Of a DNA stretch of 31,681 nucleotides, positions 5,702 through 20,733 are shown piece by piece (within the stretch, counting starts at the first letter, position 1; every line of letters starts with the position of its first letter). The notes beneath the pieces are model-generated. The model made no database searches, was not told where the DNA came from, and saw only the letters and a list, made by a program, of their open reading frames with translations. This DNA is from Minisyncoccota bacterium. Its GTDB lineage: Bacteria; Patescibacteriota; Minisyncoccia; Phycocordibacterales; UBA9973. The stretch spans positions 1 to 31,681 of the forward strand of contig DAORIU010000001.1 of the NCBI GenBank assembly GCA_035438645.1, in the 5' to 3' direction. Position numbers and translations under genes: made by a program.

Positions 5702-5730
5702 AGTCCCCCGATAAGAGGGACTGCTTTTTT
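5702..5730. terminator. Terminator hairpin downstream of the lipoprotein gene
   Basis: agtccc-ccgataaga-gggact flanked by A and T runs. Confidence 0.65.
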
Positions 5731-5742
5731 AGAAAGATCGAT

Positions 5743-6426
5743 TTAATTCTTACTGAACCACCTTTTAACCAACTGGTTGTTGTTGTTGTTGCGAAATTCA
5801 ACAACAAAGGTTTTGTTGTTTAGAAAGGTGATTTTGTCATACGCCTGGTTAGCGAAAACAATACCCTCTCCTACTAAACTCCACTGTCCAGTAGAAATTC
5901 CACCGCCAGGTGCGCATTCACTACCGTAGGTCTTTGTGGTCCCGTCGGGTAAAAATTGGATCGGCAGACAAACCAGACCACTGGTCTGGATTGGGCCTCC
6001 GTCAATCTGGATGGCTGTTAACCGGAAGATTCCGTCTCCAGCCCCTGATTTGAATACTTCAGAAAGCTGAGGAGACCAACAATCAGCGACAACGGTAGTT
6101 TCTGCTGTTTGACCATTTTGACCATGGGCAACCAACTTTACATCTAATGGGCCTGTGACAGAACTAACCGTGTAGCTATTTCCATTAACAACCCCGGGAG
6201 AGGCTGTTACTGAGGTGGCATTGGTCGCTGTTACAGAACCAACCGCATTTTCTCCGTACCACGCCTTTGAGGGAGCAGTAGCAGAAATTTTAGGCTTTGT
6301 TTCAGCGGGAGGGTTTGGTTCAACATGACCGCCACCACCAGCACCACCGGAATTTTTGCCACAAGACACAAATATAAGGATGACGAACACTACGCTCATC
6401 CTCAAAGCGTTTAAAACATTTTTCAT
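5743..6426 (-). CDS. Putative lipoprotein (lipobox FVS-C) with Gly/Pro linker and a lipocalin-like C-terminal beta domain
   Basis: MKNVLNALRMSVVFVILIFVS-CGKNSGGAGGGGHVEPNPP. The start at ATG 6426 is supported by the promoter at 6499-6528, which lies inside the longer ORF call. Confidence 0.65.
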   Translation of the reverse strand: MKNVLNALRMSVVFVILIFVSCGKNSGGAGGGGHVEPNPPAETKPKISATAPSKAWYGENAVGSVTATNATSVTASPGVVNGNSYTVSSVTGPLDVKLVAHGQNGQTAETTVVADCWSPQLSEVFKSGAGDGIFRLTAIQIDGGPIQTSGLVCLPIQFLPDGTTKTYGSECAPGGGISTGQWSLVGEGIVFANQAYDKITFLNNKTFVVEFRNNNNNQLVKRWFSKN

Positions 6427-6498
6427 GCTTTTTAATTTAGAGAATGAAGGCAATATCGCCAAAAAATCGATTAAAGGTACTTTCGTACGTTTGAGTAT

Positions 6499-6528
6499 AT
6501 TATATACCCAAAATAGGCATTTTGTCAA
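6499..6528 (-). promoter_or_regulatory. sigma70 promoter TTGACA-N18-TATAAT for the lipoprotein gene
   Basis: Perfect consensus hexamers on the minus strand. Confidence 0.65.
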
Positions 6529-6682
6529 TGTAAACACCCTAAAATGGGGATAATCTGTGGATATTTGCCTATACAATATATATATGCTATATTCCCCCTT
6601 AGTAAATGTCCGGCCCAAAAAGCTCGGACATTTCTGTTAAAAATACAAAAAACCCTTACAAAATAATACAAAAATCAAATAT

Positions 6683-9507: not shown

Positions 9508-10548
9508 ATGATTAAAAACATCGATAATTTGGAAGTAAAAAACTTAGAAAATGGACAAGTAGAAATCAAAGGAGAAATCTCTTGGGAAGCTTTTTCTAGC
9601 TTTGAAAAAAAGGCACTAGAGAGGCTTTTGCCACATGTAGAAGTAGCTGGCTTTAGAAAAGGTAATGTGCCAGAAGCCATTGCCAAAAAAGAGCTTGGGG
9701 ATGAACTCATACTCTCAGACATGGCAGAGCTTTCAATCCAAGAATTTTATCCTCAGATTTTGGAAGAGAAAAAGATTGATGCTATAGGCCGGCCCAGTGT
9801 TACAATCACAAAACTCGCTAGAGAAAACGCTCTCGGATTTACTATCGTTACTGAAGTTTTACCAGAGATAACTCTGCCAAACTACAAAAAAATAGCTAAG
9901 GATGCTCCAAAGGCATCTGGTGTTTCTGTCTCTGAAGAAGAGGTTGATAAGGTGATAGAAGATCTAAGACAAATGAAAGCTTATGGTCATGTCCACCATC
10001 ACGATGATCACAATCATGCTCACGAAGAACCACTTCCTGAAGTAAATGATGAATTTGCCAAAAGCTTTGGCGCCTTTGAAAGCGTTGCTGATTTGCGAGC
10101 AAAAATCAAAGAAAATACCTTGAAAGAAAAAGAGCAAAACGAAAAAGACAAACGTCGTATCGCTATCATGGATGGCATCATTACCGAAGCCAAGTTTATC
10201 GTTCCTTCTATCATCATAAAATCTGAACAAGAAAAAATCCTCGCTCAAATAGAAGCCGACGTTTCTCGCAGTGGTATGGAGTTTGAAGAGTATTTGAAAC
10301 ACACAAATAAAACACGTGAAGGTATAATGGAAGAATTTAAATCAGAAGCTGAGAGACGTGCTAGATTTCAAATGTGTATCAACGCTATCGCCAAAGACAT
10401 GGATTTCAAGACGACAGATGAGGAAGTAAAAGCTGAAGCCGAAAAACTAATGCAGATGTATCCAGGTGCCGACCTTGCCCGCACTACAGCTTATGCTGAC
10501 ATGCTTCTAACAAACGAAAAGATTCTTTCGACACTAGAGAGTTTGTAA
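9508..10548 (+). CDS. tig: Trigger factor lacking the FKBP PPIase domain
   Basis: Ribosome-binding signature VAGFRKGNVP, IDAIGRP, LPEVNDEFAK and a C-terminal SurA-like domain. Only 346 aa. Confidence 0.92.
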   Translation: MIKNIDNLEVKNLENGQVEIKGEISWEAFSSFEKKALERLLPHVEVAGFRKGNVPEAIAKKELGDELILSDMAELSIQEFYPQILEEKKIDAIGRPSVTITKLARENALGFTIVTEVLPEITLPNYKKIAKDAPKASGVSVSEEEVDKVIEDLRQMKAYGHVHHHDDHNHAHEEPLPEVNDEFAKSFGAFESVADLRAKIKENTLKEKEQNEKDKRRIAIMDGIITEAKFIVPSIIIKSEQEKILAQIEADVSRSGMEFEEYLKHTNKTREGIMEEFKSEAERRARFQMCINAIAKDMDFKTTDEEVKAEAEKLMQMYPGADLARTTAYADMLLTNEKILSTLESL

Positions 10549-10556
10549 AAATAATG

Positions 10557-10582
10557 AAATGCCCCGATAAGTCGGGGCATTT
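10557..10582. terminator. Terminator after tig
   Basis: aaatgccccga-taag-tcggggcattt, a perfect stem. Its T-tail overlaps a TTGACT hexamer ahead of the next gene. Confidence 0.8.
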
Positions 10583-10623
10583 GACTTTGGGGCAAAATTT
10601 AGTAAGGTAATGAAAAAAGTACA

Positions 10624-11427
10624 ATGAAAAGAAAAATATTAGTTAAAGAAACAACTGTTACTGGCCCTAATTTTTGGGGGCGAAATTCAAGTATTACATT
10701 CTTACCTGCTGGAAAACCTGGATGGTTTTGGAGAACCAAAAAAGGTGATATACCGATTGATCATAATATCGTTGTATCCAAGAAAGGCAGGCTACAGGCA
10801 AGGTATGGTGATGAAAAAATAAATGTCCTAGAGCATATTATGGCTTTAAAATTTTTAATTTGTCTGGACCAAGTGATTCTTGTTACTCATAACCCTTGGC
10901 CTCCATACATAGGAGGGACAGGTGGCTATGCTAGACAGCTTTCTAAATCTTGGGTGCAGACTGACTACAATTTTGAAACAATTGAGCCAAATAAAAATAG
11001 CCTTGTTCAGCTAGACAACAAGCTGGCTACTGAGGTTTCAATTAAAAAAACTGAAAACCCTGGATTATTGATTACTGTTCATAGCCATTGGAGTCCACTA
11101 CCCCCGTACAAAGAAACATTAGATATCAGCGACCTTGATAGCAGGAAAGACATTTTAAATGCCAGACCTCAAGGATACCCCGCACACCGGGAATATTTTG
11201 CTGAAATTGCAGGTTTAATTGGTTGGCCAAACAAAAATTATGTGTCTTGGATAGACAAAACAAAGCCACTGATAGAAACATCTCGTGAGTGGTGGACACA
11301 CGCCGTACAAGACTGCCTTGGTGAGCTGGCTCTTTGTCACTACAGGAAGATTCCATCAGCTAAAGTTTTTAGATGGTGTGCTGGACACAAACAAACACTT
11401 GAAGCAGTTAAAATTTCTTTTTCGTAA
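10624..11427 (+). CDS. Divergent LpxC-like (UDP-3-O-acyl-GlcNAc deacetylase fold) zinc hydrolase
   Basis: Motifs matched by eye to LpxC in the expected order: V.G...G..ITFLPA...G; INVLEH (E70,H71); PPYIGG; NARPQGY; THAVQDCLGEL (H226,D230); CAGH (H255). Confidence 0.65.
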   Translation: MKRKILVKETTVTGPNFWGRNSSITFLPAGKPGWFWRTKKGDIPIDHNIVVSKKGRLQARYGDEKINVLEHIMALKFLICLDQVILVTHNPWPPYIGGTGGYARQLSKSWVQTDYNFETIEPNKNSLVQLDNKLATEVSIKKTENPGLLITVHSHWSPLPPYKETLDISDLDSRKDILNARPQGYPAHREYFAEIAGLIGWPNKNYVSWIDKTKPLIETSREWWTHAVQDCLGELALCHYRKIPSAKVFRWCAGHKQTLEAVKISFS

Positions 11428-11432
11428 AGTAA

Positions 11433-11462
11433 AAAAGGTCGGACAAAAATGTCCGGCCTTTT
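11433..11462. terminator. Bidirectional terminator after the LpxC-like gene
   Basis: aaaaggtcggaca-aaaa-tgtccggcctttt. Confidence 0.8.
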
Positions 11463-11523: not shown

Positions 11524-11688
11524 AGTAGGGGTTTTTCTTAACTATACCATTATAGTATATTTAGTCAAACACTTTTTGCTTTTCGGACAAAATACGGTTA
11601 TAGTACATGCGTACCGAACTACTGTTTTAACCGAAATACTGATTTCCTACTAACTACTTACTAACAACTACTAACTTTTTAAAAACTT

Positions 11689-12279
11689 ATGTTAATCCCA
11701 ACCGTACTAGAAAAGACACCTCAAGGCGAGCGTGCTTATGATATTTATTCTCGATTACTCAAAGATCGTATTATATTTTTAGGAGGACCTGTAGATGAAC
11801 AAATTGCAAACCTCATTGTTGCACAATTATTATTCCTCGCAAATGAAGACCCGAAAAAAGATATTCATCTATACATAAACTCCCCTGGCGGAAATGTAAA
11901 GGATGGACTTGCCATTATTGATACTATGAACTTCATAAAACCAAATGTTTCAACTATATGTTTTGGTATGGCAGCATCAATGGGTGCAATGATTTTATCT
12001 GCTGGAACAAAAGGTAAGCGTTTTGCATTACAAAATGCTGAAATAATGATTCACCAACCATGGGGAGGAGCAGAAGGACAAGCCACTGATATTGAGATCG
12101 GAGCTAAACAAATAATCAAACATAGAGAAATACTTTATAAAATGCTTTCAAAAAATACTGGACAAACTGTCTCCAAAATTGAGAAAGATGCTGATCGAAA
12201 CTACTGGATGAGTTCCGAAGAAGCCAAAAAGTACGGCATAGTAGATGCTGTTATTACCAAAAACCCTGGGATAAATTAG
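11689..12279 (+). CDS. clpP: ATP-dependent Clp protease proteolytic subunit
   Basis: [33 protein letters not shown] (S97), MIHQP (H122), DADRNYWM. Confidence 0.97.
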
Positions 12280-12387
12280 TAGCGGACCTGTCCCGTTAGA
12301 AATAGACAAACAATATGAAACGAATTTCAAAAATTAAAAACTTAAACAAAATAAGTTGCGGTACATTCGCTACTTATTTCTAATGGG

Positions 12388-13875
12388 ATGAATCCTATTT
12401 TACTGGCTGTAGGAATGCTTCTAGCAGGAGGAGCTCTCGGTTACAGCATACGCGCTATTATATTTATCCTTCGCAAAAACTCTCTAGAGATCACTATCGG
12501 AGAGCGTTTGGTGCACGCCAAAGAGCAGGCTCAAAAGATAATAGATGAGGCTCGAGAAACAGAAAAACAAAAAGAGCACGAATTCAAAAATACAGAAGAG
12601 CGCCTCATCAAAAAAGAATCCCTCTTGGACCAAAGACAACTAGAACTAGATAACAAGTCAAAAACTTTAGAAGAAAAAGAGGCCAAAATAGAAGAGTTAA
12701 GAACTCAAGCTAAAAGCTTGGTAAAAGAGAGACTCTCTCTACTAGAGAGTATCTCTGGATTTTCTCTAGAAGATGCCCGAGATGCTCTTATCATAGAAGC
12801 GCAAAGAAAGTATGAAGAAGACCTCTCTGTACGAAGCAACAAACTCGAAAACCAAATGCATGAAACACTGGAAAATCGCGCCAAAGAAATTCTGATGACT
12901 GCTATCCAAAGACTCTCCGTCCCTACCACCAACGCCCTGACAACGAGTAGTGTCGCCATCCCAAACGAAGAAACCAAAGGCAAAGTCATCGGAAAAGAAG
13001 GTCGCAATATCAGAGTTTTTGAAAAAGCTTCTGGGGTCGAGCTTTTGATGGATGAGTCCCCTGGCTTTATAGTTTTGTCTTGCTTTGATCCTGTGAGACG
13101 CGCTATAGCAACACTTGCTCTTGAGAGTTTGGTAAAGGACGGACGGATCCAACCAGCGCGCATAGAGGAAGAGCTAGAAAATGCCAAAAACAACATTCAT
13201 GAAGTTATCAAACAAAAAGGCTCTGATGCTGTTTATGAGTGTGGCATCTTCAACCTTGATCCTCGTGTAGTAGCGATACTAGGTAGGTTACACTATCGCA
13301 CTAGTTACGGACAAAATGTTTTACAACACTCTATCGAAATGGCGCATGTAGCCGGCATGCTTGCTACAGAACTTGGCGCAGATGCTTATATCGCAAAAGC
13401 TGGTGCACTGGTTCACGATATCGGCAAGGCACTAGACCATGAATTTGAAGGAACTCATGTAGAAATAGGTATAAAAATGCTACGACGCTTTGGCACTGAT
13501 GAGCGCATTATCTCTGCTATGAAAAGTCACCACGATGATTACCCACACGAGTCTCTCGAAGCTGTCATAGTTCAAACAGCCGATATGATCAGTGGTTCTC
13601 GCCCTGGAGCAAGGCGTGATACTGCTGAGATGTACTTGAAGCGACTAAATGAACTCGAATCTTTGGCAAATAGTTTTGAAGGGGTAGAGAAAGCATTTGT
13701 TTTGCAGGCTGGAAGAGAGGTAAGAATATTTGTCACACCAGAAGCTATCTCTGATCTAGAATCCAAAAACTTAGCGCGCGACATTGCACTCACTATCGAG
13801 CGTGACCTGCGTTACCCTGGCCAGATTCGTGTAACAGTTATCCGCGAAACAAGAGTAATAGACTACGCAAGATAA
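12388..13875 (+). CDS. rny: Ribonuclease Y
   Basis: N-terminal TM, coiled coil, KH domain (KGKVIGKEGRNIR), HD domain (GQNVLQHS...HDIGKA, HHDD, SRPGAR), C-terminal QAGREVRI...YPGQIRVTVIRE. Confidence 0.97.
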   Translation: MNPILLAVGMLLAGGALGYSIRAIIFILRKNSLEITIGERLVHAKEQAQKIIDEARETEKQKEHEFKNTEERLIKKESLLDQRQLELDNKSKTLEEKEAKIEELRTQAKSLVKERLSLLESISGFSLEDARDALIIEAQRKYEEDLSVRSNKLENQMHETLENRAKEILMTAIQRLSVPTTNALTTSSVAIPNEETKGKVIGKEGRNIRVFEKASGVELLMDESPGFIVLSCFDPVRRAIATLALESLVKDGRIQPARIEEELENAKNNIHEVIKQKGSDAVYECGIFNLDPRVVAILGRLHYRTSYGQNVLQHSIEMAHVAGMLATELGADAYIAKAGALVHDIGKALDHEFEGTHVEIGIKMLRRFGTDERIISAMKSHHDDYPHESLEAVIVQTADMISGSRPGARRDTAEMYLKRLNELESLANSFEGVEKAFVLQAGREVRIFVTPEAISDLESKNLARDIALTIERDLRYPGQIRVTVIRETRVIDYAR

Positions 13876-14166: not shown

Positions 14167-14667
14167 ATGTCAAGTATTATTCCTATATACGGGGAGATAA
14201 ACGAACAAAAAGTTGCTGAAGTAAAAAGTTGTTTACAAAGGTTGAAGGAGGCACCTCATGATAAAGAGCTTATTTTTAAGTTTAACTCAGAAGGCGGAAA
14301 CATGGAAAGCATGGAAAAAATAAAAACTTTCATGTACTTCATGAACAAAAAACAGGGGTACACAATAATTGGCAGGATGATATATGCCGAATCCGCTGCG
14401 CTGCTTTTATTCCTTAATTGCGAAGAAAGACAGGTTACTAAAGATAGTATAGGTGTTATACATATGGCAACACTAAATCGTGAGTATGACCTAAACAAAC
14501 TCAAAAGAGAGAGAGAAGATCAAGCAAACTTTATCGTAAAAAGATGCAAAGAGAAGATAAGCCTTCAACAAGTTTTTGATCTTGAAGGTAAGAAGCTTGG
14601 TTATCAAGAACTCCTCGACCTGGGTTTTGCAAATAAACTTGTAGAAACCTTTACTTTAGCAAATTAA
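14167..14667 (+). CDS. Divergent ClpP-like (crotonase-fold) serine peptidase
   Basis: IYGEI, FNSEGG (cf. INSPGG), AESAA (S76), VIHM (H99), C-terminal ELLDLGFANKL (cf. EA..YG..D.V). Confidence 0.7.
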   Translation: MSSIIPIYGEINEQKVAEVKSCLQRLKEAPHDKELIFKFNSEGGNMESMEKIKTFMYFMNKKQGYTIIGRMIYAESAALLLFLNCEERQVTKDSIGVIHMATLNREYDLNKLKREREDQANFIVKRCKEKISLQQVFDLEGKKLGYQELLDLGFANKLVETFTLAN

Positions 14668-19562: not shown

Positions 19563-20633
19563 TTATTTGGGTTTTTGTCCAAGATCTTTGAGTTTTCCTA
19601 CATGGCTTGAGATAGCGTCAAAAAATGTTGGGAAAACAACAATTTTAAAATCAAACCTTTTGCACTCTTCTGCAACAATCTTGTGAATATCTGGCAAGTG
19701 AACATGGGATATCCTTCTAAACACATGATGTTCAATCTGAAAATTTAGCGCACCTACCCACCAAGTAATAAATTTATTATTGGTGGCAAAGTTTGCTGTA
19801 TGCTCAATCTGGTGCTCCATGGAGTCTCCACCTCGAGCCTCTTCGACTATTGAATTTTTTACACCACGAACAACGTGTGCCGGCTGAAAAACTATCGAAA
19901 GCAAAAGCCCTAGAAATCCTCCAAAGATCAAAAAACCAACCAACCATGCATTGAAGCCAAGCTCCCTGATAGGCAACCAAAAAAACACAAAAGCAAAGAA
20001 AATCTTACCTGCCCAGAACAATACATGGTCTGAGATTTTGAATCTAAGAGGCTCACCCATAACCCTACCGCTAAAATACTTCGTAAAATCTTTCAGTGGC
20101 CAGATAAAATAAAGCAGGCTATAAGCTATAGGCCAGTACCAGTGCTGAAATTTATGCACAGAGCAACGCTTTTGTCCTTCATGTAGGCGCAAAAGTGGCC
20201 AAGCCTCTATATCCTCATCAACACCCAAAACATTAACACCGTCATGGTGCGCAACGTTGTGCTTTTTTTTCCAGATACCTGAACTAACACCCAAAAATTC
20301 TGATGTTGCTCCTGCTAACATGTTTTTTATTTTGCTTTTTGAAAATGCACCATGATTACCATCATGCATTATGCAAAAACCAATACCTGAAGCAAAAAAT
20401 GCTCCAACAAAACAAAGTGGTATCTTCCAAAAAACTGACAAGTCAGTGTAAATGAGTAACCACCAAGTCAGCCAAAATCCTGCCAGGAAAAATATTGTTT
20501 TGATAAACAAGGCGCGATTTCCTTTTTTTGAAATTTTCTTTTGAGAAAAATAAGCGTTTACCTTGGCGTTGATTTCTTTAGCCATGGCACTTTTGTTGAC
20601 GAGCATTAACTCTTTGACAGAAATAGCTTCCAT
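19563..20633 (-). CDS. Membrane-bound fatty acid/acyl-CoA desaturase (three His boxes, no fused cytochrome b5)
   Basis: HDGNH, HNVAHH and QIEHH boxes plus hydrophobic segments; no HPGG motif. Start is probably ATG 20633 (or 20585). Confidence 0.92.
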   Translation of the reverse strand: MEAISVKELMLVNKSAMAKEINAKVNAYFSQKKISKKGNRALFIKTIFFLAGFWLTWWLLIYTDLSVFWKIPLCFVGAFFASGIGFCIMHDGNHGAFSKSKIKNMLAGATSEFLGVSSGIWKKKHNVAHHDGVNVLGVDEDIEAWPLLRLHEGQKRCSVHKFQHWYWPIAYSLLYFIWPLKDFTKYFSGRVMGEPLRFKISDHVLFWAGKIFFAFVFFWLPIRELGFNAWLVGFLIFGGFLGLLLSIVFQPAHVVRGVKNSIVEEARGGDSMEHQIEHTANFATNNKFITWWVGALNFQIEHHVFRRISHVHLPDIHKIVAEECKRFDFKIVVFPTFFDAISSHVGKLKDLGQKPK

Positions 20634-20704
20634 AACTAAAGTTTTAATTTGTTTTAAATAACGATGTTTGATATAAGTGTAACAATTTGCCACAAAAAAG
20701 CTAT

Positions 20705-20733
20705 TTGACATCAGACTCCTAGATGAGTAGTAT
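20705..20733 (+). promoter_or_regulatory. sigma70 promoter TTGACA-N17-TAGTAT
   Basis: Consensus match. It contains ATG 20723, so the true start is ATG 20747. Confidence 0.7.

Follow-up and report, generated by a model that had tools for sequence, protein, structure and literature searches.

The presence of an LpxC-like gene in a member of the Patescibacteria, between the genes for trigger factor (tig) and ClpP, raises the question of what such a protein does in a bacterium of the candidate phyla radiation (CPR). LpxC is regarded as an enzyme with one function, which marks lipid A synthesis and serves as a drug target in Gram-negative bacteria. According to one review, its fold matches no other known architecture (PMC6281622), and a study of Parcubacteria genomes reported neither lpxC nor kdsA (PMC5220378). 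The gene considered here lies in a window of 31,681 nt (the whole stretch of DNA that was analysed), which belongs to a 519.6-kb assembly of 72 contigs that was obtained from a wastewater metagenome and is 88.9% complete; the sequencing runs that contain the locus are DNA runs only. A preliminary description, made from the sequence alone, had proposed an orphan, repurposed metal-dependent deacetylase inserted between tig and clpP in an organism that probably lacks lipopolysaccharide (LPS), and had suggested a scavenged or host-derived glycolipid or a nucleotide sugar as a possible substrate.

The layout of the locus is summarized in the table, with the flanking genes assigned by Pfam matches. 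The terminator that the preliminary description ascribed to the gene corresponds to the hairpin and T-run immediately downstream of the stop codon. In the 78-nt spacer upstream of the ORF, one base differs in the corresponding contig of a sister strain (L029). The protein has no signal peptide or hydrophobic stretch at its N-terminus, which aligns with the N-terminus of LpxC, and it is therefore predicted to be cytoplasmic.

Features of the LpxC-like locus and codons of the residues discussed (positions in the window; residue equivalences are to E. coli LpxC and rest on alignment)
Feature	Position	Strand	Remarks
tig (trigger factor)	9508-10548	+	Upstream flank of the LpxC-like ORF
Hairpin 3' of tig	10557-10582		Terminator-like on minus-strand reading; upstream boundary of the LpxC-like unit
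Candidate promoter TTGACT-16 nt-TAAGGT	10581-10608	+	Weak and tentative; read by eye, score under promoter-scan threshold; 15 nt before ATG
LpxC-like ORF (protein P0001)	10624-11427	+	267 aa plus stop
E70-H71 codons	10831-10836	+	Equivalent to E78 (general base) and H79 (Zn ligand)
W92-P-P-Y-I-G-G98 codons	10897-10917	+	Family signature; replaces canonical P-I-x-D105-G-S
A180-R-P-Q-G-Y-P186 codons	11161-11181	+	Replaces glucosamine-binding loop A-R190-T191-F192-G-F
G200-W-P-N-K-N-Y-V-S-W209 codons (Insert II)	11221-11250	+	Placed by two profile alignments
H226-A-V-Q-D230-C-L-G-E234 codons	11299-11325	+	Putative Zn ligands H226, D230; A227 for K239; E234 for D246
R250-W-C-A-G254-H255 codons	11371-11388	+	H255 equivalent to H265 (general acid)
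Hairpin of 13 pairs, then T-run	11433-11462	+	Terminator-like; downstream boundary of the LpxC-like unit
Divergent segment bearing clpP	11580-12457	+	100-nt blocks mostly 60-82% identical to L029, gapped blocks lower
clpP	11689-12279	+	Downstream of the LpxC-like ORF
RNase Y gene (rny)	12388-13875		Downstream of clpP

The assignment to LpxC is a remote one at the level of single sequences. The Pfam LpxC model passes its cutoff narrowly (32.6 bits versus 27, E 8e-8) and the match covers model positions 17-263 of 268, while the sole NCBIfam match at E up to 10 is PRK13188, with 15.4 bits versus a cutoff of 465, and no LpxC equivalog model was returned in that search. A single-sequence phmmer search of the PDB likewise returned no LpxC, and profiles were needed to reach it. 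A nine-member family profile, aligned against 4MDT and 3NZK, aligns end to end with the E. coli and Yersinia enzymes (E 2e-4 to 4e-4), and a 150-member profile matches Aquifex aeolicus LpxC with an E-value of 9e-19, even though identity to LpxC is only 15-18%.

Structure prediction agrees with these profiles. An AlphaFold model built from the 150-sequence alignment (pLDDT 97.2, pTM 0.94) contains two beta-alpha-alpha-beta domains with both Insert I and Insert II, and all of the PDB matches listed by Foldseek, the top 50 of 54 at E<=0.001, are LpxC structures (TM 0.78, E 5e-15). In VIA-align, 253 of 267 residues align to LpxC with a Z-score of 28.2, and the next unrelated fold scores 5.3; fold searches of the AlphaFold DB clusters and the ESM Atlas return LpxC-type folds only. 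Both the Pfam match and the modelled fold are as the preliminary description had anticipated, and on the predicted structure the ORF is a full-length LpxC-fold protein.

Residue equivalences to E. coli LpxC were taken from two independent profile-to-PDB alignments, made with the nine-member and the 150-member profiles, that give the same register for the residues stated here. In the E. coli enzyme, H79, H238 and D242 bind zinc and E78 and H265 (with D246) are catalytic; K239 contacts the pyrophosphate and the 6'-hydroxyl group, the R190-G193 loop contacts glucosamine, and G210 and A215 line the acyl groove (PMC6286764, PMC9842644). The residues that had been picked out beforehand as LpxC-like (E70-H71, H226-A-V-Q-D230, G254-H255 and A180-R-P-Q-G184) are borne out by both alignments. 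Equivalents of all three zinc ligands, H71, H226 and D230, are present in the sequence alignment, G254/H255 is aligned to G264/H265, and R181-P182-Q183-G184 is aligned to R190-T191-F192-G193.

The positions that would contact the substrate are different. With G200-W201-P202 aligned to G209-G210-S211, W201 falls at G210 and Y206 at A215, the small residues of the acyl groove, and D105 aligns to I96 or to a gap. Relative to E. coli LpxC, the replacements are thus F192Q, G210W, A215Y, K239A and D246E, with D105 lost and a proline at T191. The replaced positions rank among the least tolerant in a deep mutational scan of E. coli LpxC, where the only residues accepted are F, I, M, W or Y at position 192, A or G at 210, M or N at 239 and D at 246, and where proline is tolerated in place of T191 (PMC9842644). 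As aligned, the protein appears to retain the catalytic core and to carry, at six of the least tolerant substrate-site positions, residues that would be incompatible with LpxC function in E. coli. The D246 position, E234 here, is alanine in 86 of 150 family members; since D246 is indispensable in E. coli and alanine prevails in the family, details of the proton relay must differ.

An exhaustive phmmer search of 1.84 billion representative sequences (E<=1e-3) places the protein in a family of at least 215 clusters at 50% identity. The members are about 260-290 aa in length and feature the motifs EH, WPPY-x-G, x-Q-G-W/Y-P, GWP[HN]-x5-WPQ, H-[RA]-x-x-D-x-L-G-A-L-S and S-x-C-x-G-H, all of which recur in the window protein, the last three as GWP[HN]..W, H-[RA]-x-x-D-x-x-G and G-H. 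The residues that replace the LpxC substrate site are specific to the family and rich in tryptophan (WPPY, QGWP, GWPH..WPQ). In an alignment of 150 near-full-length sequences with a mean column identity of 22%, H71 and P94 are invariant, and E70, H226, D230, G254, H255, W34 and W209, among others, are at least 90% conserved; beyond the five catalytic or metal-binding residues, about 15 positions reach this level. Equivalents of E78, H79, H238, D242 and H265 are each found in at least 155 of 159 family sequences (E70 in 157 and H71 in 158), and W201 and W209 are preserved in 129 and 148 of the 150, respectively.

A comparison with canonical LpxC sequences, one of the checks proposed in the preliminary description, sets this family apart. 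In a FastTree phylogeny that also includes 16 canonical sequences, the stem leading to the family measures 1.58 substitutions per site and has a local support of 100%. Members score at least 241 bits against the family profile (295 for the window ORF in the genome search and 288 for P0002, the 94%-identical sister allele), whereas canonical or fused LpxC sequences score at most 73 bits. The best Pfam LpxC E-value among the 150 members is 7e-16, and none of them is a canonical LpxC. All family members that bear a source name are Patescibacteria (Parcubacteria group, Nomurabacteria, Taylorbacteria and Sungbacteria); the nearest ESM Atlas cluster is mostly labelled Fibrobacterota, on the basis of few members with a taxon, and the family may therefore extend outside the CPR. 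By these measures of sequence, the Patescibacteria WPPY family is clearly distinct from canonical LpxC, and no paper describing it was found in open-access PubMed Central or bioRxiv.

One pair of positions may bear on the nature of the substrate. Arginine or lysine at 227 occurs together with serine or threonine at 250 in 132 of 150 family sequences, whereas 12, including the window protein, combine a non-basic residue at 227 with arginine or lysine at 250; a basic residue at both positions is found in none of the 150. R250 is located on the strand leading to H255 and was gained in a clade that lacks the basic residue at 227. Because the 12 swapped sequences fall within one 17-leaf clade of the FastTree phylogeny, the pattern represents few evolutionary events. 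The loss of the lysine from HKxxD, read in the preliminary description as a departure from LpxC, holds insofar as A227 stands for K239, but it is a trait of this clade, with HRxxD in most of the family. A strict equivalence of R250 to E. coli K262 was considered and rejected, as the register of this strand is shifted by two residues between the alignments, and the claim made from the alignment is limited to a mutually exclusive basic residue at 227 or 250. This distribution hints at a requirement for one positive charge close to the active site, which would fit a phosphate-bearing substrate.

The absence of lpxA, lpxB, lpxD and lpxK noted in the preliminary description applies to the window, where no lpx gene other than the LpxC-like ORF is found, and the wider search that it recommended gave the same result. 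Neither LpxB, the LpxA C-terminal domain, the LpxD N-terminal domain and LpxK nor WaaA, KdsA-type proteins and Omp85/BamA have a match in the 88.9%-complete assembly, in which the LpxC-like gene is present as a single copy. A search for LpxB and LpxD in five further carriers of the genus, of which two are 98-99% complete, likewise found neither.

The gene is sporadic in its distribution. It was detected in 6 of 51 species genomes of the genus and in 1 of 400 additional genomes drawn from the phylum, a search of 24 other families of the order found none, and its frame is intact, full-length and without stops in all carriers. All carriers of the genus, and four metagenome contigs as well, have it in the tig-clpP interval; in two of these loci it is on the opposite strand. 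Four non-carriers have tig, then 428-493 nt, then clpP, and a six-frame search of these gaps with two family HMMs detected no gene remnant above noise, so that gain and loss are indistinguishable there. The insertion claimed in the preliminary description is thus supported by the empty gap in these four relatives, but it is a recurrent site in the genus rather than a single event. A single-protein scan for related loci in genome contigs returned no match. An origin in a defence system or a phage was rejected, as PADLOC and PHROGs gave no match.

The gene diverges much faster than its neighbors. Alleles within the genus are 32-61% identical (mostly 32-47%) irrespective of the tig and rny grouping, although pairwise identities of tig and rny yield one consistent grouping; between genome G469 and genomes G033 and G025, for example, tig is 81-84% identical and the LpxC-like protein only 42-43%. 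The clpP gene occurs in three allele classes in the genus, at odds with the grouping by tig and rny. On both sides of the segment that bears clpP, the window and the sister contig L029 share about 97% identity, and ClpP is 67% identical in amino acid sequence versus 99% for trigger factor, which indicates that the clpP allele next to the LpxC-like gene is a replaced one. (The gap between clpP and rny is 108 nt in the window versus 1-7 nt in relatives.) Since the divergence of the LpxC-like gene is discordant with its flanks and clpP alleles are swapped, the tig-clpP interval is a recombination hotspot, and the combination of one site, either strand and alleles of 32-61% identity argues for an old hotspot, not a recent event. 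The gene is an accessory, fast-diverging cassette with a putative terminator of its own. In comparison with L029, dN/dS is 0.43 for the LpxC-like gene (94% amino acid identity) versus 0.03 for tig, and this value could reflect relaxed constraint.

Outside the genus, the gene is found in other contexts. One subclade preserves a co-directional operon (GT4 glycosyltransferase, LpxC-like, GT4-like, GT4, UDP-sugar dehydrogenase-like, GtrA, PMT_2) in two assemblies whose LpxC-like proteins are 50% identical. In another context the gene is divergent from mraZ and a division and cell-wall cluster, and further contexts include housekeeping or unannotated genes. The glycosyltransferase operon is the sole functional hint, and it points to glycoconjugate synthesis. 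A GT4 partner in the genome analysed here was considered and rejected, as PF00534 has no match there; the operon context of the other subclade is therefore not directly transferable. An FGE-fold partner was rejected as well: PF03781 has no match in this genome, and the 12 gene contexts covered by the analysis contain none.

Taken with the residues above, we infer metal binding and catalysis, and favor, at a probability of roughly 0.7, a catalytically competent zinc-amidohydrolase that performs LpxC chemistry on a different substrate. Such an enzyme would be a soluble cytoplasmic protein in which Zn2+, held by H71, H226 and D230, activates water; E70 would act as the general base and H255, supported by E234, as the general acid, and in the net reaction an amine would lose its acetyl group or another short acyl group. 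The substrate would be other than the lipid A precursor UDP-3-O-acyl-GlcNAc, because replacements affect the loop that binds glucosamine, the 'DGS' motif, the lysine that binds pyrophosphate and the small acyl-groove residues, and because the rest of the pathway is lacking. For the same reasons, the protein is best described as LpxC-fold and LpxC-like in mechanism, outside the LpxC enzyme family. The repurposed metal-dependent deacetylase of the preliminary description therefore survives in most of its parts (LpxC fold, zinc ligands and acid/base pair kept, substrate residues replaced, lipid A partners not found), with the exception of the one-off insertion.

The class of substrate can be narrowed only tentatively. 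The basic residue at 227 or 250, together with the glycosyltransferase operon in one subclade, makes it possible, at somewhat less than even odds, that the enzyme acts on an N-acetyl-hexosamine whose carrier bears phosphate; a nucleotide, a sugar phosphate and a polyprenyl diphosphate are examples of such carriers. MurA (PF00275) and Mur ligases (PF08245) were not found in the 89%-complete genome, and a Mur ligase match is absent in 31 of 40 other genomes of the genus; an MraY-like gene (L032:1258-2316), with 141 bits to TIGR00445 and thus below the cutoff of that model, adjoins FtsW (L032:122-1252). Membrane steps of wall synthesis therefore appear to be present without the cytoplasmic precursor pathway. 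On a speculative and rather unlikely reading of this gene set, the LpxC-like amidase would be a lineage-specific enzyme of salvage or surface remodelling in an episymbiotic lifestyle and would act on N-acetylated envelope precursors from the host; these might be muropeptide-, nucleotide- or polyprenyl-linked amino sugars. If such salvage occurs, the fast, hotspot-borne diversification would reflect adaptation to different hosts or phage pressure.

Several other readings can be weighed against the amidohydrolase with an N-acetylated sugar substrate. The amide hydrolysed could instead be a non-sugar one (an N-acyl amino acid, a peptide N-terminus, an acetylated polyamine or another small molecule), in which case the location beside tig and clpP might point to a function in processing proteins or peptides. 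The LpxC residues that contact the sugar and UDP are indeed mostly replaced, all carriers of the genus have the gene at the tig-clpP site, and GT4, MurA and Mur ligases were not found in the genome analysed here. This is nevertheless unlikely: the gene has its own terminator, may lie on either strand and is missing in 45 of 51 genomes of the genus, a pattern more typical of a permissive insertion site than of an operon partner, and other subclades carry it elsewhere, one of them inside the glycosyltransferase operon. Nor does the protein replace peptide deformylase, a possibility prompted by the vicinity of tig, as def is present in the genome. The dN/dS value, the patchy distribution with many genomes lacking the gene, the very fast divergence of alleles and the unconserved D246 position would all be compatible with a decaying or non-catalytic relic, derived from a former LpxC or a horizontally acquired copy and either binding or regulatory in function or drifting to loss. 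The frames of the carriers are all intact, however, the catalytic and metal-binding residues and the other conserved positions persist at 22% mean identity, and the model is very confident (pLDDT 97.2). An active site kept across such depth is not that of a drifting gene, and we regard a relic as distinctly improbable.

Readings that retain lipid A chemistry fare worse. Salvage or sabotage of lipid A precursors or acylated GlcNAc lipids from a Gram-negative host could draw on the full-length Insert II in the model and on a fatty acid desaturase in the window, but, as aligned, the acyl groove has tryptophan and tyrosine for glycine and alanine and glutamine for F192, changes of which E. coli LpxC is intolerant. 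In addition, the protein lacks a secretion signal and no route is known by which cytoplasmic intermediates of a host would enter the cell; such a role is very improbable. That the protein is an ordinary LpxC, whose lipid A pathway is complete but was left unassembled, can be almost entirely discounted. This would be in line with the Pfam gathering threshold being passed and with an assembly that is only 88.9% complete, yet this genome gave no match to seven families of the pathway and the outer membrane, LpxB and LpxD were not found in the further carriers, nearly complete ones included, and the family is clearly separate from canonical LpxC.

The closest known system is LpxC itself (EC 3.5.1.108; PF03331; structures include 1YH8/1P42 of A. 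aeolicus and 4MDT of E. coli), with which the protein shares the predicted two-domain fold with both inserts, the same aligned zinc ligands (His, His and Asp), Glu general base and His general acid, a similar length and a cytoplasmic location, which is predicted for the LpxC-like protein. It differs in its low identity, its own tryptophan-rich motifs and its replaced substrate residues, and the gene is accessory and sporadic, whereas LpxC is essential and universal. Orphan LpxC homologues are already known from monoderm Bacillota, where 'lpxC2' paralogues have no known function and have been read as possible remnants of a paralogous region (PMC11448272). Like these, the present gene is an LpxC homologue in a bacterium that has a single membrane and lacks the remainder of the lipid A pathway; unlike them, it belongs to another phylum and to a long-branch clade of its own, in which all named members are Patescibacteria.

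A functional analogy, for the subclade with the glycosyltransferase operon, is offered by the PIG-L/LmbE-type GlcNAc de-N-acetylases, such as MshB and BshB, zinc-dependent enzymes that act after a GT4 transferase on a GlcNAc conjugate. The GT4, LpxC-like, GT4 operon of that subclade may share this logic. The fold of these enzymes is unrelated, and the analogy concerns a subclade other than that of the genome analysed here, which has no GT4 match.

If the favored reading is correct, a conserved LpxC-fold family that is catalytically intact and occurs in bacteria lacking lipid A would represent a second chemistry for the fold, and would open a way into the envelope or salvage biochemistry of ultra-small bacteria, which is poorly understood. 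Where automatic annotation labels a CPR gene as 'LpxC', this should not be taken as a sign of LPS. The ESM Atlas also contains LpxC domains fused to response-regulator receiver domains and to AAA+ domains of sigma-54 activators, in clusters of 83 to 381 members from Acidobacteriota and Nitrospinota; these fusions suggest that the LpxC fold also serves as a sensor or regulatory module.

Some further features of the window were observed. The fatty acid desaturase mentioned above is located at 19563-20711 (Pfam FA_desaturase, 103 bits) in this 520-kb genome; CPR genomes have been reported to be without fatty acid synthesis (PMC5220378). The trigger factor matches only Pfam Trigger_N and Trigger_C, and an FKBP-type PPIase domain was not reported at E<=1. 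Both hairpins that bound the LpxC-like unit share words of 10-12 nt (ccccgataag; aaatgtccggcc; tcggaca) with a second pair of hairpins, at 5704-5725 and 6604-6633, although 12-mer repeats are expected by chance in 31.7 kb on a rough estimate; the second pair bounds an unrelated ORF of 290 aa (5743-6618). Downstream of RNase Y there is a second, short ClpP-like ORF of 166 aa (14167-14667), which matches Pfam CLP_protease with 27 bits over about half of the model and has a counterpart in a related contig (L002).
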